Origin: Gammaproteobacteria bacterium
GTDB lineage: Bacteria > Pseudomonadota > Gammaproteobacteria > UWMA-0217
Assembly (NCBI GenBank): GCA_027081275.1
Contig: JALWKV010000046.1
Span: forward strand, 2,315 to 66,314
DNA: 64,000 nucleotides
Reading direction: 5' to 3'
This document shows positions 11,217-18,099 of this stretch, in pieces. Made by a program: the position numbers and the translations under genes. Position 1 is the stretch's first letter. Each line of letters begins with the position of its first letter. Below the pieces are notes generated by a model. It worked only from the letters and a program-made list of their open reading frames with translations. It did not search any database and was not told the origin of the DNA.

Positions 11217-11317
11217 GCGACCCCCTCTTTCGTTCTGGTTGGTAGTGGGGTCAGTGTACGCCCGTCGTCGCCACGGACGCGCGTCTGCCGCCTGTGGTCA
11301 ATACGGGGATCGGGTCA

Positions 11318-12832
11318 TCACGAGGGTCGCTTGCGCTCGAAAATGATCTGCTGCCACTCTCGCGGCCCGGTCTCGTGCACCGACACGCCGCGCGAATCGA
11401 CGGCGACGGTCACCGGCATGTCCCTGACCTCGAATTCGTAGATCGCCTCCATGCCGAGATCGTCGAAGGCGACGACGCGGGCGGCGGTGATTGCCTTCGA
11501 AACCAGGTAGGCCGCGCCACCGACGGCCATCAGGTAGACCGAACGATGACGCCTGATCGACTCGATGGCTGCGGGGCCACGCTCGGCCTTGCCGATGGTG
11601 CCGAGCAGGCCGGTCTCGTCGAGAATGCGGTCGAGGAACTTGTCCATCCGCGTCGCCGTCGTCGGTCCCGCCGGGCCGACGACCTCGCCGTCCACCGGAT
11701 CGACCGGACCGACGTAGTAGATGAACTTGCCCGCCAGATCGACCGGCAGCGGTTCGCCGCGGTCGAGCAGCTCGAACAGCCGCTTGTGGGCGGCATCGCG
11801 GCCGGTGTACATCTTGCCGGAGAGCAGCAGCACTTCGCCCGGCTGCCAGCTGGCGATCTGTTCGCGCGTGACGCTGTCGAGATCGACCCGGCGCGAACCG
11901 GGCGCGGCCTCGTAGGCGATATCGGGCCAGATCGAGAGATCCGGCGGCGCCTGCAATGCCGGGCCGCTGCCGTCGAGCGTGAAATGCGCATGACGGGTCG
12001 CGGCGCAGTTGGGAATCAGCGCCACCGGCAGCGACGCGGCGTGGGTGGGATAGTCGCGAATCTTGACGTCCAGCACCGTCGTCAGACCGCCCAGCCCCTG
12101 GGCGCCGATGCCGAGTTCGTTGACCCTGTCCACCAGCTCCAGCCGCAGTTCCTCGACGCGATTGGCGGGGCCGCGCTGGCGCAGTTCATGGATGTCGATC
12201 GGCTCCATCAGCGCCTCCTTCGCCAGCAGCACCGCCTTCTCCGCCGTGCCGCCGATGCCGATGCCGAGAATGCCCGGCGGGCACCACCCCGCGCCCAGCG
12301 TCGGCACGATATCGAGCACCCAGTCGACGATGCTGTCGCTGGGATTGAGCATCGCCAGCCGCGCCTTGTTCTCGGAGCCGCCGCCCTTGGCCGCCACCGT
12401 CACCTCGACGGTATCGCCGGGCACGACCGTCATGTGGATCACCGCCGGGGTGTTGTCGCCGGTGTTTCGCCGCCGGCCGGCCGGATCGGAGACGATCGAC
12501 GCCCGCAGCACGTTTTCCGGCCAGAGGTAGGCGCGACGCACCCCCTCGTTGACCATCTCCTCGACGCTCATGTCGCCCTCCCAGCGCACGTCCATGCCGA
12601 TCTTCAGAAACGCCACGACGATGCCGGTGTCCTGGCAGACCGGTCGATGCCCCTCCGCCGCCATCCGCGAATTGACCAGAATCTGCGTGATCGCATCCTT
12701 CGCCGCCGGCGACGCCTCCTCTTCCCAGGCCCGCGTCATCGCGCGGACGAAATCCTCGGGATGGTAGTAGGAGATGAATTGCAGCGCGTCGGTGAGGCTG
12801 GCGATGAAATCTTCGTTCTTGATCAGGGGCAT
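11318..12832 (-). CDS. fumA: Class I (Fe-S dependent) fumarate hydratase
   Basis: 504 aa; N-terminal catalytic region with CQDTGIVVAFLKIG and a C-terminal beta-subunit-like domain, matching FumA/FumB-type class I fumarases. Confidence 0.9.
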   Translation of the reverse strand: MPLIKNEDFIASLTDALQFISYYHPEDFVRAMTRAWEEEASPAAKDAITQILVNSRMAAEGHRPVCQDTGIVVAFLKIGMDVRWEGDMSVEEMVNEGVRRAYLWPENVLRASIVSDPAGRRRNTGDNTPAVIHMTVVPGDTVEVTVAAKGGGSENKARLAMLNPSDSIVDWVLDIVPTLGAGWCPPGILGIGIGGTAEKAVLLAKEALMEPIDIHELRQRGPANRVEELRLELVDRVNELGIGAQGLGGLTTVLDVKIRDYPTHAASLPVALIPNCAATRHAHFTLDGSGPALQAPPDLSIWPDIAYEAAPGSRRVDLDSVTREQIASWQPGEVLLLSGKMYTGRDAAHKRLFELLDRGEPLPVDLAGKFIYYVGPVDPVDGEVVGPAGPTTATRMDKFLDRILDETGLLGTIGKAERGPAAIESIRRHRSVYLMAVGGAAYLVSKAITAARVVAFDDLGMEAIYEFEVRDMPVTVAVDSRGVSVHETGPREWQQIIFERKRPS

Positions 12833-12899
12833 GGGAGTAGATCAGGTTGGGACAGGCAAGCAGTAGCGGCTGGAGGTATGACGAAGTGGAATGCGACCA

Positions 12900-13124
12900 T
12901 CAGGCCACTTCCCGAACATGTGCGATTTCCCGCTTGCCGACGGGTCTCACGTCTTCCGCTGAAACGGTGACGACACCAACGGTCTCGCCGGTCAGTGTCG
13001 TGAACTCGATTTCGAAGCCGCGACCACCGGCATGCACCATGACTACCGTGCCGACATCTCCGGCTTGCAATCCGAAATCGGGCAGGTCACGGGTCAGCAC
13101 GACGGGTTCGAATTCTTTGATCAT
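12900..13124 (-). CDS. DUF4926-like small protein (74 aa)
   Basis: MIKEFEPVVLTRDLPDFGLQAGDVGTVVMV...GFEIEF pattern typical of DUF4926. 4-nt overlap with the upstream ORF. Confidence 0.6.
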   Translation of the reverse strand: MIKEFEPVVLTRDLPDFGLQAGDVGTVVMVHAGGRGFEIEFTTLTGETVGVVTVSAEDVRPVGKREIAHVREVA

Positions 13125-13741
13125 GGGTGTTTCTCCACTGGATAGGCGGTCACCAGACGGGCCTCATCGGCCGCCCGCTCGATGAACCAGACCGTGCGCA
13201 GCAACACTATCCTACCATCGGGGGTCGACAAGGGCCCATCGACAACGAACTTGACGCCGAAAGCCGTTTCCAGCGGTTCGTCGCTGGCATTGAGCCGGCC
13301 ATGCTCGAGCAGCGCCGCGCCAAGCAACTCGGGACGATCGGGTGAGAATCCCAGCCTCATGAAAAAAAGCGCCTTTTGCCTGCTGACTGGATGCCTTTCA
13401 TTGAGCAGATACCGCGACAGCTTTTCGCTTTCGACAGTCAACTTGTAAGCCCCAAGCGTCCTTTCCGCTGTCGAGCGATTGCCCTCCACCTGCCCCGAAG
13501 TGCCGTCTCGCCGCAACTGAGCCACCACCTCTCGCTGCGCCGCATCGGCCGCCTCCGCATTGCCCAGCAGCAGATCGAAAAGCTGGGGATCCTCCATTTC
13601 CAGCAACGCGGCGAAGGCCGCCCTCTCCTTCTCACTGGCGTTGGGGTAGCGGTATTTCAGCCAATGGTCGAGCGCGATGTCGAGCTCGCGCGCACCGCGG
13701 CGGCAAAGCCATTTCAGACGGGCGAGTTCGTCATTTTCCAT
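13121..13741 (-). CDS. sdhE: SdhE (FAD assembly factor / CptB-like, residues ~1-85) read through in-frame into a DUF6883-like domain (~107 aa). May be two genes with a lost stop or an unrecognised TTG start
   Basis: MENDELARLKWLCRRGARELDIALDHWL...LLEMEDPQLFDLLLG aligns to E. coli SdhE (ARIHWACRRGMRELDISIM...LLECDDPDLFNWLM). The downstream part (KLSRYLLNERHPVSRQKALFFMRLGF...LVTAYP) is DUF6883-like. The 70 codons upstream of the Met in the ORF track overlap the neighbouring gene and are discounted. Confidence 0.55.
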   Translation of the reverse strand: MENDELARLKWLCRRGARELDIALDHWLKYRYPNASEKERAAFAALLEMEDPQLFDLLLGNAEAADAAQREVVAQLRRDGTSGQVEGNRSTAERTLGAYKLTVESEKLSRYLLNERHPVSRQKALFFMRLGFSPDRPELLGAALLEHGRLNASDEPLETAFGVKFVVDGPLSTPDGRIVLLRTVWFIERAADEARLVTAYPVEKHP

Positions 13742-13745
13742 CACG

Positions 13746-14927
13746 CTAGAAAAAGCGGGCCAGTTCGAGCTGGATGAAGTCGTCGCTGCGCAGTGGATAC
13801 TGCGGGTCTTTGGGGTCGATGTGGCCGAACAGCTGCGCCTCGGCGGTGATTTTCCAGTTCTGGCCGATGCGCCGGTTGAACTCGACGCGGTAGCCGCGGC
13901 TGCCGAGTTCGAGGTCGAACAGCCCGCCGGCGAGCAGCTCGGTGCTCTGGGCATCGTTCAGCGCCCAGCGCGCGCCGAGAAAGAGATCGTTCTGGAACGG
14001 CGTCGGCGCATCCTTGCCGCGGCTGTCGCGGTGATATTCCATCAGCACGCCAAGATCGGCATCCGATTCGGCGATGCCGTAGAAGGTGTATTCGAAACCG
14101 CCGACCATCGCATCGAAACGGTCGTCGGAAAATTCGCGATGGATCGCCTCCAGTTTCCACAGCCAGTTTTCCAGCGTCGCCTGCAGGTCGAGGCCGATCT
14201 GGTCGATCTGCGGATAGTAGGGAATCAGGCGCGGCTGTCCCCCAGCGGTGACGAGGCGCAGCTGCGGATCGCGCGAGGTGCCGGAGAAAAACGACAGCCC
14301 CAGATCCCAGTCGTCATGCACGGTACCAGCAAGGCGCAACGCGTAGTCGACATGGCGATCCTCGCGGTCGGACTCGTACTGCGCGTGGTCGGTATCGATC
14401 GGCAGCGGCCCGCGCAGCCGACCATCGACGCCCGGGAAGGTCCGCTCGCGAAAGCCGGGTAGCACGAACAGCTCCACCGTGCCCCAGTCCCGGTACCAGA
14501 GCCCATGCAGCGCCGGCTGGCCGAGCTTGTCCTCGCCATCGATGTTTTCCACCAGATCGGTCTGGTTGATGATATCGACCAGATGCCTGGACTCGGTCAC
14601 GCCCCAGAAAACCTTGATCAGCCCCGCATCCCACTCCCAGTCGCCGCGCGCGAAATGCAGCCGCGCCTCGCGCAGATCGGCATGGGTACGCTCCTCGTCA
14701 ACGCCGTCGTGGCGATAGAAGGGAGTGATGGTCAGCGAATAGTCGGTTCCGTCGAAGGCGTGGTAATACTCCACCTCCGCCGACAGCGAGGGATAGATAT
14801 CCTCCTGCTCCGTATAAAGCGCATCATTCCAGAAATAGCGCGCCTCGGCGGTGACATTGCCGCGCCACTCAGCTTGCGAGGCGAGAGAAAAAAGCAGCAA
14901 TGCCGCCGAGAGGATTTTTCCTTTCAT
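13746..14927 (-). CDS. Outer-membrane beta-barrel protein of the DUF1302-like family that partners with DUF1329/RND
   Basis: Signal peptide MKGKILSAALLLFSLASQA. Aromatic/Gly-rich beta-strand pattern with C-terminal ...LELARFF. Start chosen at the internal Met of the ORF track. Confidence 0.6.
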   Translation of the reverse strand: MKGKILSAALLLFSLASQAEWRGNVTAEARYFWNDALYTEQEDIYPSLSAEVEYYHAFDGTDYSLTITPFYRHDGVDEERTHADLREARLHFARGDWEWDAGLIKVFWGVTESRHLVDIINQTDLVENIDGEDKLGQPALHGLWYRDWGTVELFVLPGFRERTFPGVDGRLRGPLPIDTDHAQYESDREDRHVDYALRLAGTVHDDWDLGLSFFSGTSRDPQLRLVTAGGQPRLIPYYPQIDQIGLDLQATLENWLWKLEAIHREFSDDRFDAMVGGFEYTFYGIAESDADLGVLMEYHRDSRGKDAPTPFQNDLFLGARWALNDAQSTELLAGGLFDLELGSRGYRVEFNRRIGQNWKITAEAQLFGHIDPKDPQYPLRSDDFIQLELARFF

Positions 14928-14944
14928 CTTCGGCATGCCACCTT

Positions 14945-15724
14945 TCAGTGCAGATTCTTCAACTTGTTCTTGTTGAAATCCTTGGCGCGGAGGCCCGTCC
15001 TGAACTTGTAGTTCTTCCACTCGAGCACGGTGCTCTTGCCGTTTTGCAGATTTTTCATCTCCATTTTCGACGGCCGCCAGTAGTGGCCGAGATATTCCTT
15101 GTAGTCGCTCATCGTCAGCGTCTTCAACGGCTTGTTCTTGCGATCGTAGTATTCGACCTTGACGATGCGGTATTTATCCTTGTCGAGCCAGACGACCTGC
15201 CGCGTATAGCCGGAGTATTTGTATTGCGGCCGCCGCTCGATGACATGGCACTGCCACTGCCCGCAGGGCTCCTCGCGCAGAAAACGGTAGGCGTATTTCT
15301 CCACCTCCTGCGAGCCGAGATCCTCGAAGGCGAACTCGCTGCCCATGAACGGCCCGGACTTGTTGCGCGAACTGATCCGCTTGACCCTTTTCAGCGCCGG
15401 CAGATAGAGCCACTGATCATCGGGCTTGAGCCCGTGGGAAAAGGTCAACATCGCCGTCCCCTTCACATCCGCCGGCTCGTCGAAGATCGACATGCTCTTG
15501 TCGCCGTCGCCATCCACCTCCAGCGTGCGGATGCGGATGTGACGCACGCTCTCCTGCCCCTTGCGGTTGCGCAGCGTCATCGTCATGTCGGCAGTGAAAT
15601 CACCGAAGCCCTTGTCGTAGGCGTCGGCCTCCTGGGCAATACGCAGCCCCTTCTCCTCGGCCGTCTCGGCCTGGACCACACCGCCGAACAGCAACGCCAC
15701 GATGATGGCAATCCAGTATTTCAT
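14945..15724 (-). CDS. LolA-like outer-membrane lipoprotein-sorting/carrier protein (DUF1329-like), 259 aa
   Basis: Only the C-terminal 259 codons of the 479-aa track ORF are protein-like (MKYWIAIIVALLFGGVVQAETAEEKG...). The rest is a GC-rich alternate frame. ATG confirmed at 15724. Confidence 0.65.
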   Translation of the reverse strand: MKYWIAIIVALLFGGVVQAETAEEKGLRIAQEADAYDKGFGDFTADMTMTLRNRKGQESVRHIRIRTLEVDGDGDKSMSIFDEPADVKGTAMLTFSHGLKPDDQWLYLPALKRVKRISSRNKSGPFMGSEFAFEDLGSQEVEKYAYRFLREEPCGQWQCHVIERRPQYKYSGYTRQVVWLDKDKYRIVKVEYYDRKNKPLKTLTMSDYKEYLGHYWRPSKMEMKNLQNGKSTVLEWKNYKFRTGLRAKDFNKNKLKNLH

Positions 15725-15771
15725 CTTCTGTCTCTCTTTTACTGTTAAACAATGATTCGACGAGCGCCGCC

Positions 15772-18099
15772 TCAGGCCACGCCGGCGGCCCCGTCGGCCG
15801 CCTTCACCGAGCTGGTTTTCGCGTCGCGATCGAGGCGCATCAGCAGCGGCGGCAGAAAGAAGAAATCGACGAACAGCGCAATGGCAATGGTGATCGCCGT
15901 CATCAGCCCCATCGAGGCATTGAGCTCGAAGGCCGACCGCGACAATACCAGAAAGCCGGCCACGAGCACGGCCGTGGTCACCCACAGGGCCATGCCGACG
16001 CTGTGGAAGGCGTAGCGCACGGCATCCTCCGCGCCGAGCTGCTGCTCGCGCCGCGCCCGCACATACTTGCTGAGAAAATGCACCGTATCGTCGACGACGA
16101 TGCCCAGCGTCATGGCGACGACCACCGACAGCGCAAGGCCGATCTCGCCCCTGACCAGATACCAGACGCCAAAGGCCATCGCCGCCGGCGCGAGGTTGGG
16201 AATCAGGCTGATCAGCCCGAGCCGCAGCGAGCGCAGCGCGAAAATCAGCGTGATCGAGATCAGGAACAGCGCCACGATCGTGCCGGTCAGCATGCTCCTG
16301 ATATTGCGCATGCCGATATGGGAGAACATCACTGTCGGACTGGCGCCCTGCGTGACCAGCTCCGGCGTATTCTCTTGCCTCCATTCACGCGCGCGCTGCT
16401 CCAGCGCCAGCACCTGGCTGGTGCTCAGCGTCTGCAGCGAAACCGACATCCGCGTCGCCGACTTGTCGATATTGATCTGGTTGTTCAGGTCGAGTCCGTA
16501 GGGCAGCGACATTTCATAGAGCAGCAGATACTGCGCCGCCAGATCGCGCGCCTCCGGCAGCCGGTAGAACGCCGGATCGTCGCCATGCATGTTGCGGTTG
16601 AGGCGCTTGAAGATATCGGTGATCGCGTTGACATGCTTGACCTCGGGCTGCAGCCGATACCAGTTGGCGAATTTCTCCACCTGCTGCAGAAAACGGGGAT
16701 CGCTGATGCCGCCCTTCTCGCCGCTGTCGAGCGAGTAGTCGATGAAATAGAGCCCGGTGAGATTCTCCGCCACCTTGTCGGTATCGACGCGAAACTTGAT
16801 GCTCTCATCGAAATACTGGACGAAATTGTCATTGAGCTGATTGCGCGGCGCGAGCGCCGCCAGCACCAAGATCAGCGCCCCCACGCCGTAGAGCAGCGGG
16901 TTGCGATGGCAGATGACGAAATCCGCCAAGCCATCCATGACATGGTGCCCGCGCGTCTTGCGCGCCCTGGCGCGCACCGGCAGCACCGAAATCATCGCCG
17001 GCAGGAAGGTGACGCTGAGAACAAAGGCGTAGATCACGCCCATCGCCGTGATGTTGCCGAGATCCCGAAACGGCGGCGCGTCGGAAAAGTTCATCGACAG
17101 GAAGCCGATCGCCGTGGTGAAGGAGGTGAGAAAAATCGGGTGGAAATTGATCCTCATGCTCTCGACGATGGCCGCGTTGCGGGAATCGCCGTGACGCATG
17201 CGAAACAGCATCGTCGAGAGAAAATGGATCGAGTCGGCCACCGCGAGCGTCATGATCATCGTCGGCGCCGACATCGTCGGGGGCGTCAGCCGTATGCCGA
17301 ACCAGCCCGCCGTGCCCATGGCCGCGAAAATCGACATGAACAGCAGCAGCACCGTCGTCACCGTTCCGCTGATGCTGCGCAGAAAAACGATCAGGCCGAG
17401 AATGATCACGCCCAGCGCCATCGGCACCAGCGTCTGCATGTCCTTCATCGACGCCTCGGGGAAGGCGTTGTTCATCATCACCACGCCGGTGACGTAGAAC
17501 TCGATGTCCGGATAGCGTTTTTCGAAGTCGGCCACCATCTGCCGCACGAAGGCGACCACCTCGGGCACCTCCGCGGTCGGATTCTCGCCTGGCAGCTCTA
17601 TGGTGATATTGACGCCGGTCGCGTGGGCGCTGTCGGAGATCAGCCGCCGGACCAGCAACGGCTCCGCCAGCGCGATCCGGCCGCGCTCGGCCAGCTCCCC
17701 GTCGGACATCTCGCCGGGGTTTTCGATCAGATCCTCGACGATGAGGTCGTCATCCTCGGCGTGGGTGTGCTGAAAATTGGACACCGAATCGACCCGGATC
17801 GAATACGGCACCTGCCATGCCGCCTCGGTCAGCTCGGTCACCGCCGTCATCACTTCCCTGCTGATCGCCTCGCCGTCGCGGGGCAGCAGCATGATCAGCA
17901 CGTTGTCGGTTTTGGTATAGGTGTCCTGAAGGTTTTCAAAAGCGGCGAGCTGCGGATTCTCCTTGCTGAAGAAAACCCGGTAGTCGTTCGTCAGCGTCAG
18001 GAATCGCCCGCCGGACGCCAGCAGCGCCACCGACAGCAGACTGACGGCAATGACCAGCCAGCGCCAGCGAATGATCCACTCGGCATATTTTTCGATCAT
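15772..18099 (-). CDS. RND-superfamily exporter with MMPL-type domains
   Basis: 775 aa with two TM bundles (12 TM) and two large periplasmic loops. Adjacent to the DUF1329/DUF1302 pair and a TetR gene. Confidence 0.8.
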   Translation of the reverse strand: MIEKYAEWIIRWRWLVIAVSLLSVALLASGGRFLTLTNDYRVFFSKENPQLAAFENLQDTYTKTDNVLIMLLPRDGEAISREVMTAVTELTEAAWQVPYSIRVDSVSNFQHTHAEDDDLIVEDLIENPGEMSDGELAERGRIALAEPLLVRRLISDSAHATGVNITIELPGENPTAEVPEVVAFVRQMVADFEKRYPDIEFYVTGVVMMNNAFPEASMKDMQTLVPMALGVIILGLIVFLRSISGTVTTVLLLFMSIFAAMGTAGWFGIRLTPPTMSAPTMIMTLAVADSIHFLSTMLFRMRHGDSRNAAIVESMRINFHPIFLTSFTTAIGFLSMNFSDAPPFRDLGNITAMGVIYAFVLSVTFLPAMISVLPVRARARKTRGHHVMDGLADFVICHRNPLLYGVGALILVLAALAPRNQLNDNFVQYFDESIKFRVDTDKVAENLTGLYFIDYSLDSGEKGGISDPRFLQQVEKFANWYRLQPEVKHVNAITDIFKRLNRNMHGDDPAFYRLPEARDLAAQYLLLYEMSLPYGLDLNNQINIDKSATRMSVSLQTLSTSQVLALEQRAREWRQENTPELVTQGASPTVMFSHIGMRNIRSMLTGTIVALFLISITLIFALRSLRLGLISLIPNLAPAAMAFGVWYLVRGEIGLALSVVVAMTLGIVVDDTVHFLSKYVRARREQQLGAEDAVRYAFHSVGMALWVTTAVLVAGFLVLSRSAFELNASMGLMTAITIAIALFVDFFFLPPLLMRLDRDAKTSSVKAADGAAGVA

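Follow-up and report, generated by a model that had tools for sequence, protein, structure and literature searches.

The DUF6883 family has been described as BECR-Tox3, which occurs in fusions to phage MuF (minor capsid) proteins and is followed downstream by DUF4926 as a putative immunity protein, and DUF4258 (Ntox49) has been placed in the colicin-like BECR group (preprint 10.64898/2026.08.28.747851). The active site of CdiA-CT Kp342 comprises K157, Y160, H170, R252 and T255, and CdiI Kp342 is described as having one helix and nine strands (PMC9086364). Concerning the housekeeping protein considered here, sdhE of E. coli also precedes a gene that is described as a toxin, YgfX/CptA (PMC8621075).

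At the locus studied, contained in a 64,000-nucleotide stretch of gammaproteobacterial DNA (hereafter the window), a DUF6883 domain is joined in frame to the flavinylation factor SdhE and is followed by a DUF4926 gene. With the described DUF6883/DUF4926 pairs the locus shares the two families, the order with the toxin first and the overlap of 1-4 nt. It differs from them in that its toxin has neither a start codon nor an upstream region of its own and lies C-terminal to a housekeeping protein, SdhE taking the place that MuF proteins hold in the described fusions. The original prediction had considered that an in-frame SdhE fusion would be unusual, and this was borne out by the searches. None of the best 150 matches among 1.84 billion representative proteins covered both halves of the fusion, no match to those representatives reached E < 1e-30, and a literature search brought up no description of SdhE fused to a toxin. 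When the GTDB genome collection was scanned with an alignment of the 393-aa protein encoded upstream and with the fusion protein, no confirmed relatives emerged; a JGI metagenome scan gave one distant DUF6883 gene and nothing more, and no second copy of sdhE, DUF6883 or DUF4926 was found within the 64 kb. We propose, as the probable account, a genuine and heritable fusion that arose as toxin-immunity cassettes turned over at a hotspot bounded by sdhE and the gene for fumarate hydratase.

The fused reading frame

All the features discussed here lie on the minus strand. In the ORF listing the fusion has 206 codons (13121-13741); it begins with the ATG at 13741, 4 nt past the stop of the upstream gene, and ends with the TGA at 13121-13123. 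The N-terminus defined in this way agrees with the MENDEL or MGNDEL starts of orthologous SdhE proteins, and a 277-codon version from 13954, which runs into the upstream gene, was discarded as an ORF-finder artefact. The SdhE core (codons 1-77, 13511-13741) is supported by the Pfam Sdh5 match, the alignment to 1X6I and the orthologues. It is followed by a linker of codons 78-92 (13466-13510; RDGTSGQVEGNRSTA), which stands where sdhE would have its last 9 codons and its stop, and then by the DUF6883/BECR-Tox3 domain, a predicted RNase toxin (codons 93-206, 13124-13465), supported by Pfam, AlphaFold2 and Foldseek. On the 206-aa product, PF03937 (Sdh5/SdhE) matched residues 7-78 over profile positions 1-74 of 76 (E 1.5e-18, 66.9 bits) and PF21814 (DUF6883) matched residues 100-202 over positions 7-109 of 110 (E 9.8e-25, 87.4 bits), the cut-off being 27 bits for either family. 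As profile matches to the predicted product, these E-values are far beyond chance, and no stop codon separates the two domains. Hence the first reading of the locus, in which the SdhE sequence continued without a stop into a DUF6883-like region, was upheld by the presence of both Pfam domains in one ORF, and the HMM searches that it had proposed matched all three families, SdhE, DUF6883 and DUF4926. The in-frame fusion of SdhE with DUF6883 is confirmed as genuine.

A protein identical over the 206 residues is encoded in the ENA assembly ERZ23491300 and in Logan SRR13622958, which derive from two other samples and from different runs, and three further haplotypes (L004, L005 and L017, the last also P0288) keep the frame open in all cases while carrying 15-28 SNPs per about 800 nt. 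These observations exclude sequencing error, which had been put forward as an alternative. One might in addition suspect that the contig is chimeric or that assembly or sequencing produced an artefact, given the metagenomic source and a junction richer in SNPs than any other part of the locus; against this stand the independent assemblies, the occurrence of the same architecture in other samples and the collinearity of the flanking genes with orthologous loci, and we find this explanation scarcely credible. For annotation, a 206-aa 'SdhE' is no error to be trimmed.

Over its first 77 residues the fusion is a bona fide homologue of E. coli SdhE/YgfY (CptB), with the RGxxE motif retained as R15-G16-A-R-E19. 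The surrounding stretch, C13-R-R-G-A-R-E-L-D21, aligns with CRRGMRELD of the E. coli protein, residues 7-77 align with the E. coli YgfY/SdhE structure 1X6I (phmmer E 4e-13), and identity to stand-alone 86-aa SdhE proteins is 83-91%. Against the NCBIfam equivalog NF008130, a model with a high cut-off for which the fusion was scored alone, it reached 59.2 bits, below the cut-off of 120 bits. SdhE activity may be expected to persist in the fusion. The locus differs from the E. coli YgfY/YgfX pair in that the downstream partner is an RNase-fold domain joined to SdhE in cis, with DUF4926 instead of SdhE as the presumptive neutraliser. No CptA/YgfX-like gene adjoins the fusion, the downstream sequence comprising the DUF6883 domain, DUF4926 and the fumarase with no other Pfam family, and the relation to the CptA/CptB pair evoked by the original prediction is therefore unsupported.

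The loss of the sdhE stop codon and the absence of a recognisable toxin start codon within the linker imply a single product from initiation at sdhE: ribosomes starting there would synthesize one 206-aa protein in which a 15-residue linker under little constraint connects the helical core of SdhE to an entire toxin domain. The sole conserved candidate for a separate start of the toxin domain is an in-frame TTG at codon 101 (13439-13441); a GTG at codon 85 was ruled out, being GAG or GCG in other haplotypes. It might be supposed that TTG101 (13441) serves as an additional or even the main start for a free toxin domain, in which case the locus would be an ordinary bicistronic pair and the SdhE extension a side product. 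Three haplotypes agree exactly at the TTG and around it, a weak Shine-Dalgarno-like GGGG (-4.7 kcal/mol) is located 8 nt upstream, and the purifying selection on DUF6883 described below fits either route of expression. However, conservation of the TTG is equally explained by its coding for Leu in a constrained domain, and the GGGG site would pair less strongly than the sites of the DUF4926 gene (-6.4 kcal/mol) and of the 393-aa gene (-7.2 kcal/mol). Moreover, when the domain is aligned with stand-alone homologues, their N-termini already begin 8 codons ahead of the TTG, and according to the structural model initiation there would clip part of strand β1. Since SdhE is without a stop codon, every translation event on sdhE still gives the fusion and TTG101 can at most add a second product. 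The internal TTG start contemplated for a separate DUF6883 gene is a conserved codon, preceded by a weak site and replacing no fusion product, and we regard separate translation of the toxin domain, whether additional or predominant, as unlikely.

The DUF6883 domain and its DUF4926 partner

The DUF6883 domain and DUF4926 were modelled by AlphaFold2 as separate units. The model of the former (pLDDT 93.4, pTM 0.86) shows a BECR-type α/β fold. Its best Foldseek matches in the PDB were the four chains of 6CP9 (TM 0.65-0.71; 0.65-0.67 and E about 1e-4 for the top match), the complex of the CdiA-CT Kp342 tRNase toxin of contact-dependent inhibition, the matched chains being assigned to the toxin by their secondary-structure order (helices, then strands). 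RelE and HigB2 were among the weaker matches, and in BFVD the domain resembled the C-terminal portions of minor capsid proteins from phages (TM 0.77-0.78). The resemblance to CdiA-CT Kp342 is visible by fold comparison only: a profile of the DUF6883 alignment gave nothing meaningful against PDB sequences, and sequence identity to CdiA-CT Kp342 is just 15-17%. Both domains have the helices-then-sheet order and comparable K...Y...H...R-x-x-T residues. Read from motif order and spacing, K107, Y111, H117 and R195-x-x-T198 of the fusion parallel the active-site set of CdiA-CT Kp342 and constitute its candidate catalytic residues. In an alignment of 61 sequences, all the invariant DUF6883 columns (K, Y, L, H, K, G, G, W) and the terminal T-A-Y-P are present in the window and the well-conserved R-x-x-T is also kept, whereas the N-terminal LPN motif reads LGA. 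Fold and motif together lead us to predict that the domain cleaves tRNA or other RNA. The cofactors relevant to CdiA-CT Kp342 are EF-Tu, EF-Ts and GTP.

Polymorphic toxins of the CDI and MuF-toxin types carry an N-terminal delivery module, which is absent from the fusion. By Pfam, no delivery, secretion or packaging module (MuF, CdiA or other) is present, the N-terminal part being the cytoplasmic SdhE, and the locus differs from the CdiA/CdiB system in having neither the CdiA delivery region nor CdiB. PADLOC and PHROGs gave no match for the fusion or for DUF4926.

The DUF4926 gene (12900-13124, 74 aa; PF16277, E 2.4e-19) encodes the predicted immunity protein or antitoxin, and the coordinates, lengths and 4-nt overlap given in the original prediction all proved exact. 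Its ATG overlaps the TGA of the fusion as ATGA (13121-13124), and a GGAG Shine-Dalgarno site is found at 13133-13136 (duplex -6.4 kcal/mol). Through this overlap and site DUF4926 would be translated by coupling, and the protein is predicted to bind the putative RNase domain and thereby neutralise it. Its model (pLDDT 89) shows a KOW/SH3-like barrel, so that this 74-aa protein appears to differ from the CdiI Kp342 architecture. Pairs of DUF6883 followed by DUF4926 with overlaps of 1-4 nt occur in unrelated genomes and contexts (L012, L014 and L018-L023); in one of them the start lies in a GTGA shared with the stop of a preceding aminopeptidase-like gene. The toxin-antitoxin-like nature attributed to the pair in the original prediction is supported by this recurrent pairing, by the BECR fold and by the family assignment of the preprint (10.64898/2026.08.28.747851). 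With type II toxin-antitoxin systems the pair has in common two small, adjoining, co-directional genes with coupled translation (ATGA plus GGAG). Their other hallmark, an antitoxin whose DNA-binding domain autoregulates its own promoter, was not found: DUF4926 has no HTH, RHH or AbrB match, and no promoter-like site was detected near the cassette, which lies inside a host operon. Searches for tRNAs, Rfam families and promoter-like or terminator-like sites likewise gave nothing that bears on the locus. Being compact, the locus lends itself to experiments on DUF6883/DUF4926, a pair so far uncharacterised.

The slot between sdhE and the fumarase gene

On the right, the slot is flanked by the conserved gene of a class I fumarate hydratase (11318-12832; Pfam Fumerase and Fumerase_C), a neighbour common to L006, L011, L016 and L017, and the spacer between DUF4926 and the fumarase start (12833-12899) forms the right edge of the variable cassette. 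On the left, the conserved flank is the gene of the 393-aa protein (13746-14927; no Pfam match), common to L006 and L010. This protein has a hydrophobic, signal-peptide-like N-terminus and Phe as last residue, and is probably an outer-membrane protein.

Among these uncultured bacteria the content of the slot varies. It is empty, with a 63-nt spacer, in L011; in L006, L007 and L009 it holds a DUF4258 toxin gene and an antitoxin-like gene for a 79-aa zinc-ribbon protein resembling MqsA, the start of the same DUF4258 gene being present in L008; it holds the DUF6883/DUF4926 fusion cassette in the window, L004, L005 and L017; and in the toxin-deleted derivative L016 it retains 3' remnants of DUF6883 and an intact DUF4926. 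The DUF4258 state of L008 and the fusion of L017 come from one common sample. The DUF4258 cassette has the slot, the toxin-first order and the overlapping genes in common with the DUF6883/DUF4926 cassette, and its toxin is likewise of a BECR-type family according to the preprint (10.64898/2026.08.28.747851), but the sequences of the two cassettes are unrelated. In the DUF4258 state the stop of sdhE is preserved and lies 5 nt ahead of the toxin start. Close relatives possess a stand-alone 86-aa SdhE with a stop, followed by the DUF4258 cassette or by none. Comparison of orthologous loci had been suggested as a way to find sdhE and DUF6883 as separate genes; the separate 86-aa sdhE with its stop was indeed found, but a separate neighbouring DUF6883 gene was present at none of the loci compared.

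Compared with the DUF4258-state loci, the DNA is homologous up to sdhE codon 77, and on the right similarity resumes only about 10-20 nt before the fumarase ATG. This indicates that a cassette swap removed the stop codon of sdhE. The junction is one of replacement and not the visible stop-codon mutation that had been considered as an alternative; when the fusion tail was aligned as a point-mutated form of the orthologue tail GGQSGNDVE-stop, the similarity was not significant against shuffles. For the sdhE body of the window, pS is 0.055 against a DUF4258-state allele and 0.147 against another fusion allele; the greater closeness to the former points to recombination inside sdhE. No donor of the cassette was found, the closest DUF6883 homologues being at most 53% identical.

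In the proposed cassette turnover, the left junction of an incoming DUF6883/DUF4926 cassette would have fallen inside sdhE, after codon 77, with loss of the last 9 codons and the stop, and the start codon of the toxin would no longer be recognisable. Given that BECR toxins are normally C-terminal in larger proteins and that the SdhE tail is variable, neither half should suffer from the fusion. Most likely, then, the fusion is a tolerated by-product of cassette turnover and not an adaptation. The locus also serves as a test case for the tolerance of SdhE to C-terminal cargo. It provides a natural case, polymorphic in one population, of a toxin-immunity cassette that has lodged at the 3' end of a housekeeping coding sequence and gives a chimeric protein. 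The empty site, the alternative cassette, the fusion and its toxin-deleted derivative, side by side, document cassette turnover at one hotspot, and the states of the locus illustrate how host translation signals are borrowed and how an immunity gene can outlast its toxin domain.

Selection on the fused segments

Estimates of selection, built on few substitutions (4-8 per segment), gave pN/pS of 0.19 for SdhE (two fusion haplotypes, codons 1-78) and of 0.14-0.33 for DUF6883 (four haplotypes). For linker codons 79-92, non-synonymous to synonymous changes were 4:0, 7:1 and 5:1 among haplotypes, with no stop created. The SdhE and DUF6883 domains are under purifying selection and the linker is not.

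Purifying selection on both halves, together with a frame that is open in at least four haplotypes, is compatible with a fusion that functions as a unit, SdhE tethering the RNase domain or gating it by the availability of apo-SdhA/FrdA, or else modulating it in cis. In that case the toxin would respond to the state of respiration and of the TCA cycle, the fumarase being co-transcribed next door. We consider such a unit very improbable. The toxin-deleted haplotypes (L016 and P0289) show that the DUF6883 domain is dispensable.

These same siblings, in which most of DUF6883 is gone, DUF4926 is kept and an 86-aa SdhE has been regained, might rather suggest that fusion, by depriving the toxin of a free N-terminus and of its own promoter and start, inactivated or crippled it and left a neutral relic nearing deletion, so that only SdhE and perhaps DUF4926 would matter. 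The orphan DUF4926 of L013, the LGA in place of LPN and the restriction of the fusion to one narrow lineage can be read in the same way. Such decay is, in our view, doubtful. All the invariant and nearly invariant DUF6883 residues are intact, the low pN/pS of the domain contrasts with the almost exclusively non-synonymous changes of the adjoining linker, and the same fold occurs C-terminally in larger phage proteins, so that fusion at its N-terminus need not be inactivating. Finally, DUF4926 has been retained with almost no amino-acid change (0-2 non-synonymous changes among haplotypes), as would fit a partner that is still dangerous.

The fusion gene and its authenticity

A single minus-strand ORF of 206 codons (13121-13741), from an ATG at 13741 to a TGA, codes for both SdhE and DUF6883, a predicted RNase-toxin domain. 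Sdh5/SdhE occupies residues 7-78 (Pfam, E 1.5e-18), aligns with residues 7-77 of E. coli YgfY/SdhE (1X6I) and retains the RGxxE motif; DUF6883 occupies residues 100-202 (profile positions 7-109 of 110, E 9.8e-25). The start lies 4 bases past the stop of the upstream gene and its translation, MENDELARLKW..., agrees with the N-termini of orthologous SdhE proteins; a 277-codon ORF from 13954 merely extends back into the upstream gene and was rejected as the extent of the fusion. The ATG of the DUF4926 gene (12900-13124, minus strand; Pfam E 2.4e-19) overlaps the fusion TGA as ATGA, and sdhE, DUF6883 and DUF4926 are each present once within the 64 kb. The original prediction, an in-frame read-through of SdhE into DUF6883 followed by an overlapping DUF4926 gene, was essentially right.

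Sequencing error, raised there as an alternative, was rejected because the exact 206-aa protein is coded by ENA contig ERZ23491300, with 2 mismatches against the window over 11.8 kb, and by a Logan contig from another run (SRR13622958), identical to the window, and because the frame across the junction is open in three further fusion haplotypes (3/3). Two of these are partial and come from two additional samples (L004 and L005; 15-28 SNPs per about 800 nt), and the third, from ERZ27262687, is full length and differs at many positions (L017, protein P0288).

That the fusion is unusual is borne out by an exhaustive HMMER search covering 1.84 billion cluster representatives, in which none of the 3073 matches had E < 1e-30 and the best 150 each cover one half only, with no SdhE-DUF6883 fusion among them; 90% clustering places the fusion under an 86-aa SdhE representative, and other fusions could likewise hide behind short representatives. 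A word-indexed search returned nothing beyond stand-alone DUF6883 proteins and a single 176-aa protein. Pfam recognised no N-terminal domain in the longer DUF6883 proteins (176-272 aa), and no report of an SdhE-toxin fusion was found in the literature.

The sdhE-fumarase slot and the junction

Each of the nearest SdhE proteins (91, 83, 69 and 64% identity) stands alone at 85-86 aa, and their contigs have the flanks of the window, a 393-aa Pfam-less protein upstream and class I fumarase downstream; the content of the sdhE-fumarase interval varies. In the DUF4258 state (L006:4090-4654, L007, L009) a 110-aa DUF4258 (Ntox49-type) gene lies 5 nt after sdhE, followed by an overlapping 79-aa gene whose product weakly matches MqsA antitoxin/zinc ribbon; L008, a 538-nt contig, ends within the DUF4258 gene (L008:326-538). 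Among PHROGs, the 79-aa protein hits two families whose function is unknown. In the empty state (L011) the fumarase gene directly follows sdhE after a 63-nt gap. The toxin-deleted haplotype (L016:347-967, protein P0286) has an 86-aa SdhE whose tail ...LRWHGVSGQ, common to the fusion, is followed by GS and a stop (...RWHGVSGQGS); the tail of P0289 resembles it. Since L016 combines this characteristic tail with short remnants of the DUF6883 3' part (coding stretches DGRIVLLR and YPVEKHP) and an intact orphan DUF4926, it descends by deletion from an ancestor of the fusion type. As the DUF4258, empty, fusion and toxin-deleted states are found between the same flanks, the slot is a hotspot at which small two-gene cassettes, toxin gene first, settle, and the states coexist, since one metagenome yielded both L008 and the L017 fusion. 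Thus orthologs do carry a separate sdhE with its own stop, as the original prediction had considered, next to a DUF4258 cassette or an empty slot rather than DUF6883.

The window and L008 are near-identical up to sdhE codon 77 (...VAQLR), where similarity collapses. The 60 nt past codon 77 matched the DUF4258-state tail no better than shuffles (173 and 1090 of 2000 reached the observed score), and similarity to DUF4258-state loci resumes only about 10-20 nt ahead of the fumarase ATG (gene at 11318..12832, minus strand). From this loss and return of similarity we infer that the fusion event was a cassette replacement with its left junction within sdhE. A lost stop in the form of a visible point mutation was rejected, the tail after codon 77 being no more similar than shuffled sequence. 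Stand-alone DUF6883 proteins start M-x-L-P-N-A, which aligns to fusion residues 93-98 (ERTLGA), so that no toxin start codon is recognisable there; residues 78-92 are a linker derived from the junction. At synonymous sites the window sdhE body has diverged less from a DUF4258-state allele (pS 0.055) than it has from a second fusion allele (0.147), which suggests that cassettes moved between backgrounds by homologous recombination within sdhE. In an unrelated MAG (L012:186-189) a DUF6883 gene paired with DUF4926 starts at a GTG within a GTGA that also holds the TGA stop of an aminopeptidase-like gene; DUF6883/DUF4926 cassettes thus repeatedly lodge tight against host-gene 3' ends, the fusion being one small step off. 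G+C content drops modestly over 12850-13600, to about 0.59-0.60 from 0.62-0.70 in the genes on either side, which is compatible with foreign origin.

The predicted toxin and its partner

In an alignment of 61 DUF6883 sequences the K, Y, L, H, K, G, G and W columns are invariant and the T-A-Y-P end (consensus ...PRLVTAYP) nearly so; the window domain retains all of them. Its AlphaFold2 model (pLDDT 93.4) comprises a short strand, three helices and a three-stranded sheet. Foldseek gave only four significant PDB matches, all chains of 6CP9 (TM 0.65-0.71), the CdiA-CT/CdiI complex of Klebsiella pneumoniae 342, with RelE and HigB2 toxins among the weak matches. CdiA-CT Kp342 is listed in a review as a BECR-fold tRNase, helices then strands, with active-site residues K157, Y160, H170, R252 and T255 (PMC9086364). 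K107, Y111, H117, R195 and T198 of the fusion have matching order and spacing, and from this motif order we infer that they correspond to those residues. Among predicted viral structures the best matches were to phage 'minor capsid' proteins 473-497 aa long, in their C-terminal parts (TM 0.77-0.78, E 7e-8).

A preprint of August 2026 (10.64898/2026.08.28.747851) names DUF6883 BECR-Tox3, often fused to Phage_Mu_F and commonly with DUF4926 downstream, arranged as toxin and immunity gene, and it assigns DUF4258, which overlaps Ntox49, to the colicin-like BECR group; its DUF6883 assignment is the same as ours, reached independently. The pairing with DUF4926, with 1-4 nt overlap, recurs among unrelated genomes, and one orphan DUF4926 was found elsewhere. 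The BECR-type fold match, the recurrent pairing and the preprint all favour the toxin-antitoxin-like pair originally predicted. The DUF4926 model is a small KOW/SH3-like barrel (pLDDT 89) with no resemblance to any known antitoxin or immunity protein.

The locus is most economically explained by a predicted BECR-RNase toxin-immunity cassette having replaced another at the hotspot. The incoming cassette would have displaced an earlier one in the sdhE-fumarase slot and, one junction falling within sdhE, would have created a chimeric SdhE-toxin protein. The chimera would be tolerated because SdhE can do without its tail, BECR toxins naturally function at the C-terminus of larger proteins and DUF4926 is co-translated; the arrangement is not essential, since sibling haplotypes deleted the toxin domain. 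That toxin activity is adaptively coupled to SdhE or respiration is improbable; nothing here requires it. Within a toxin-immunity family that was predicted only recently and is still uncharacterised, the fusion represents a new architecture. It is valuable chiefly as a clear natural illustration of how cassettes turn over and genes fuse, and it also offers an experimental way into DUF6883/DUF4926.

Constraint, expression and neighbouring genes

Nei-Gojobori comparison of the fusion haplotypes gave pN/pS of 0.19 for the SdhE part and 0.14-0.33 for DUF6883, 0-2 non-synonymous changes in DUF4926, and non-synonymous to synonymous counts of 4:0, 7:1 and 5:1 in linker codons 79-92; the numbers, though small, agree with one another, the SdhE and DUF6883 domains being constrained and the linker unconstrained. 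SNP density peaks in the roughly 45-nt linker (window 13466-13520), 7/15 SNPs of L004 and 9/28 of L005, almost all non-synonymous, lying between 13479 and 13520. The simple reading is relaxed constraint; diversifying selection or a recombination scar may also account for it. The linker lacks stops in every fusion haplotype, with too few mutations to show selection for an open frame.

The internal TTG start raised originally is codon 101, the only conserved internal start candidate; its SD-like site is weak and initiation there would cut into the first strand of the modelled domain. It may add a second product and cannot strip the extension from SdhE. Since no promoter-like or terminator-like site was found near the cassette and the upstream genes are tightly packed, the toxin domain relies on host operon signals.

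Many long ORFs antisense to real genes (11294-12970 and 13677-14462 on the plus strand, among others), one of 558 codons opposite the fumarase gene, were rejected as genes, being typical of high G+C content (60-70%). The tightly packed upstream set (13746-18099, minus strand) codes for a 775-aa MMPL/RND-like transporter, a 259-aa LolA-like/DUF1329 protein and the 393-aa protein, with a TetR regulator gene farther upstream as at L001:2957-3646. The 393-aa protein has no Pfam match, and with the patterns used no relatives were found among GTDB representative genomes; it has a hydrophobic N-terminus and a C-terminal Phe. As a whole, the set resembles an export system for lipids or hydrophobic compounds.
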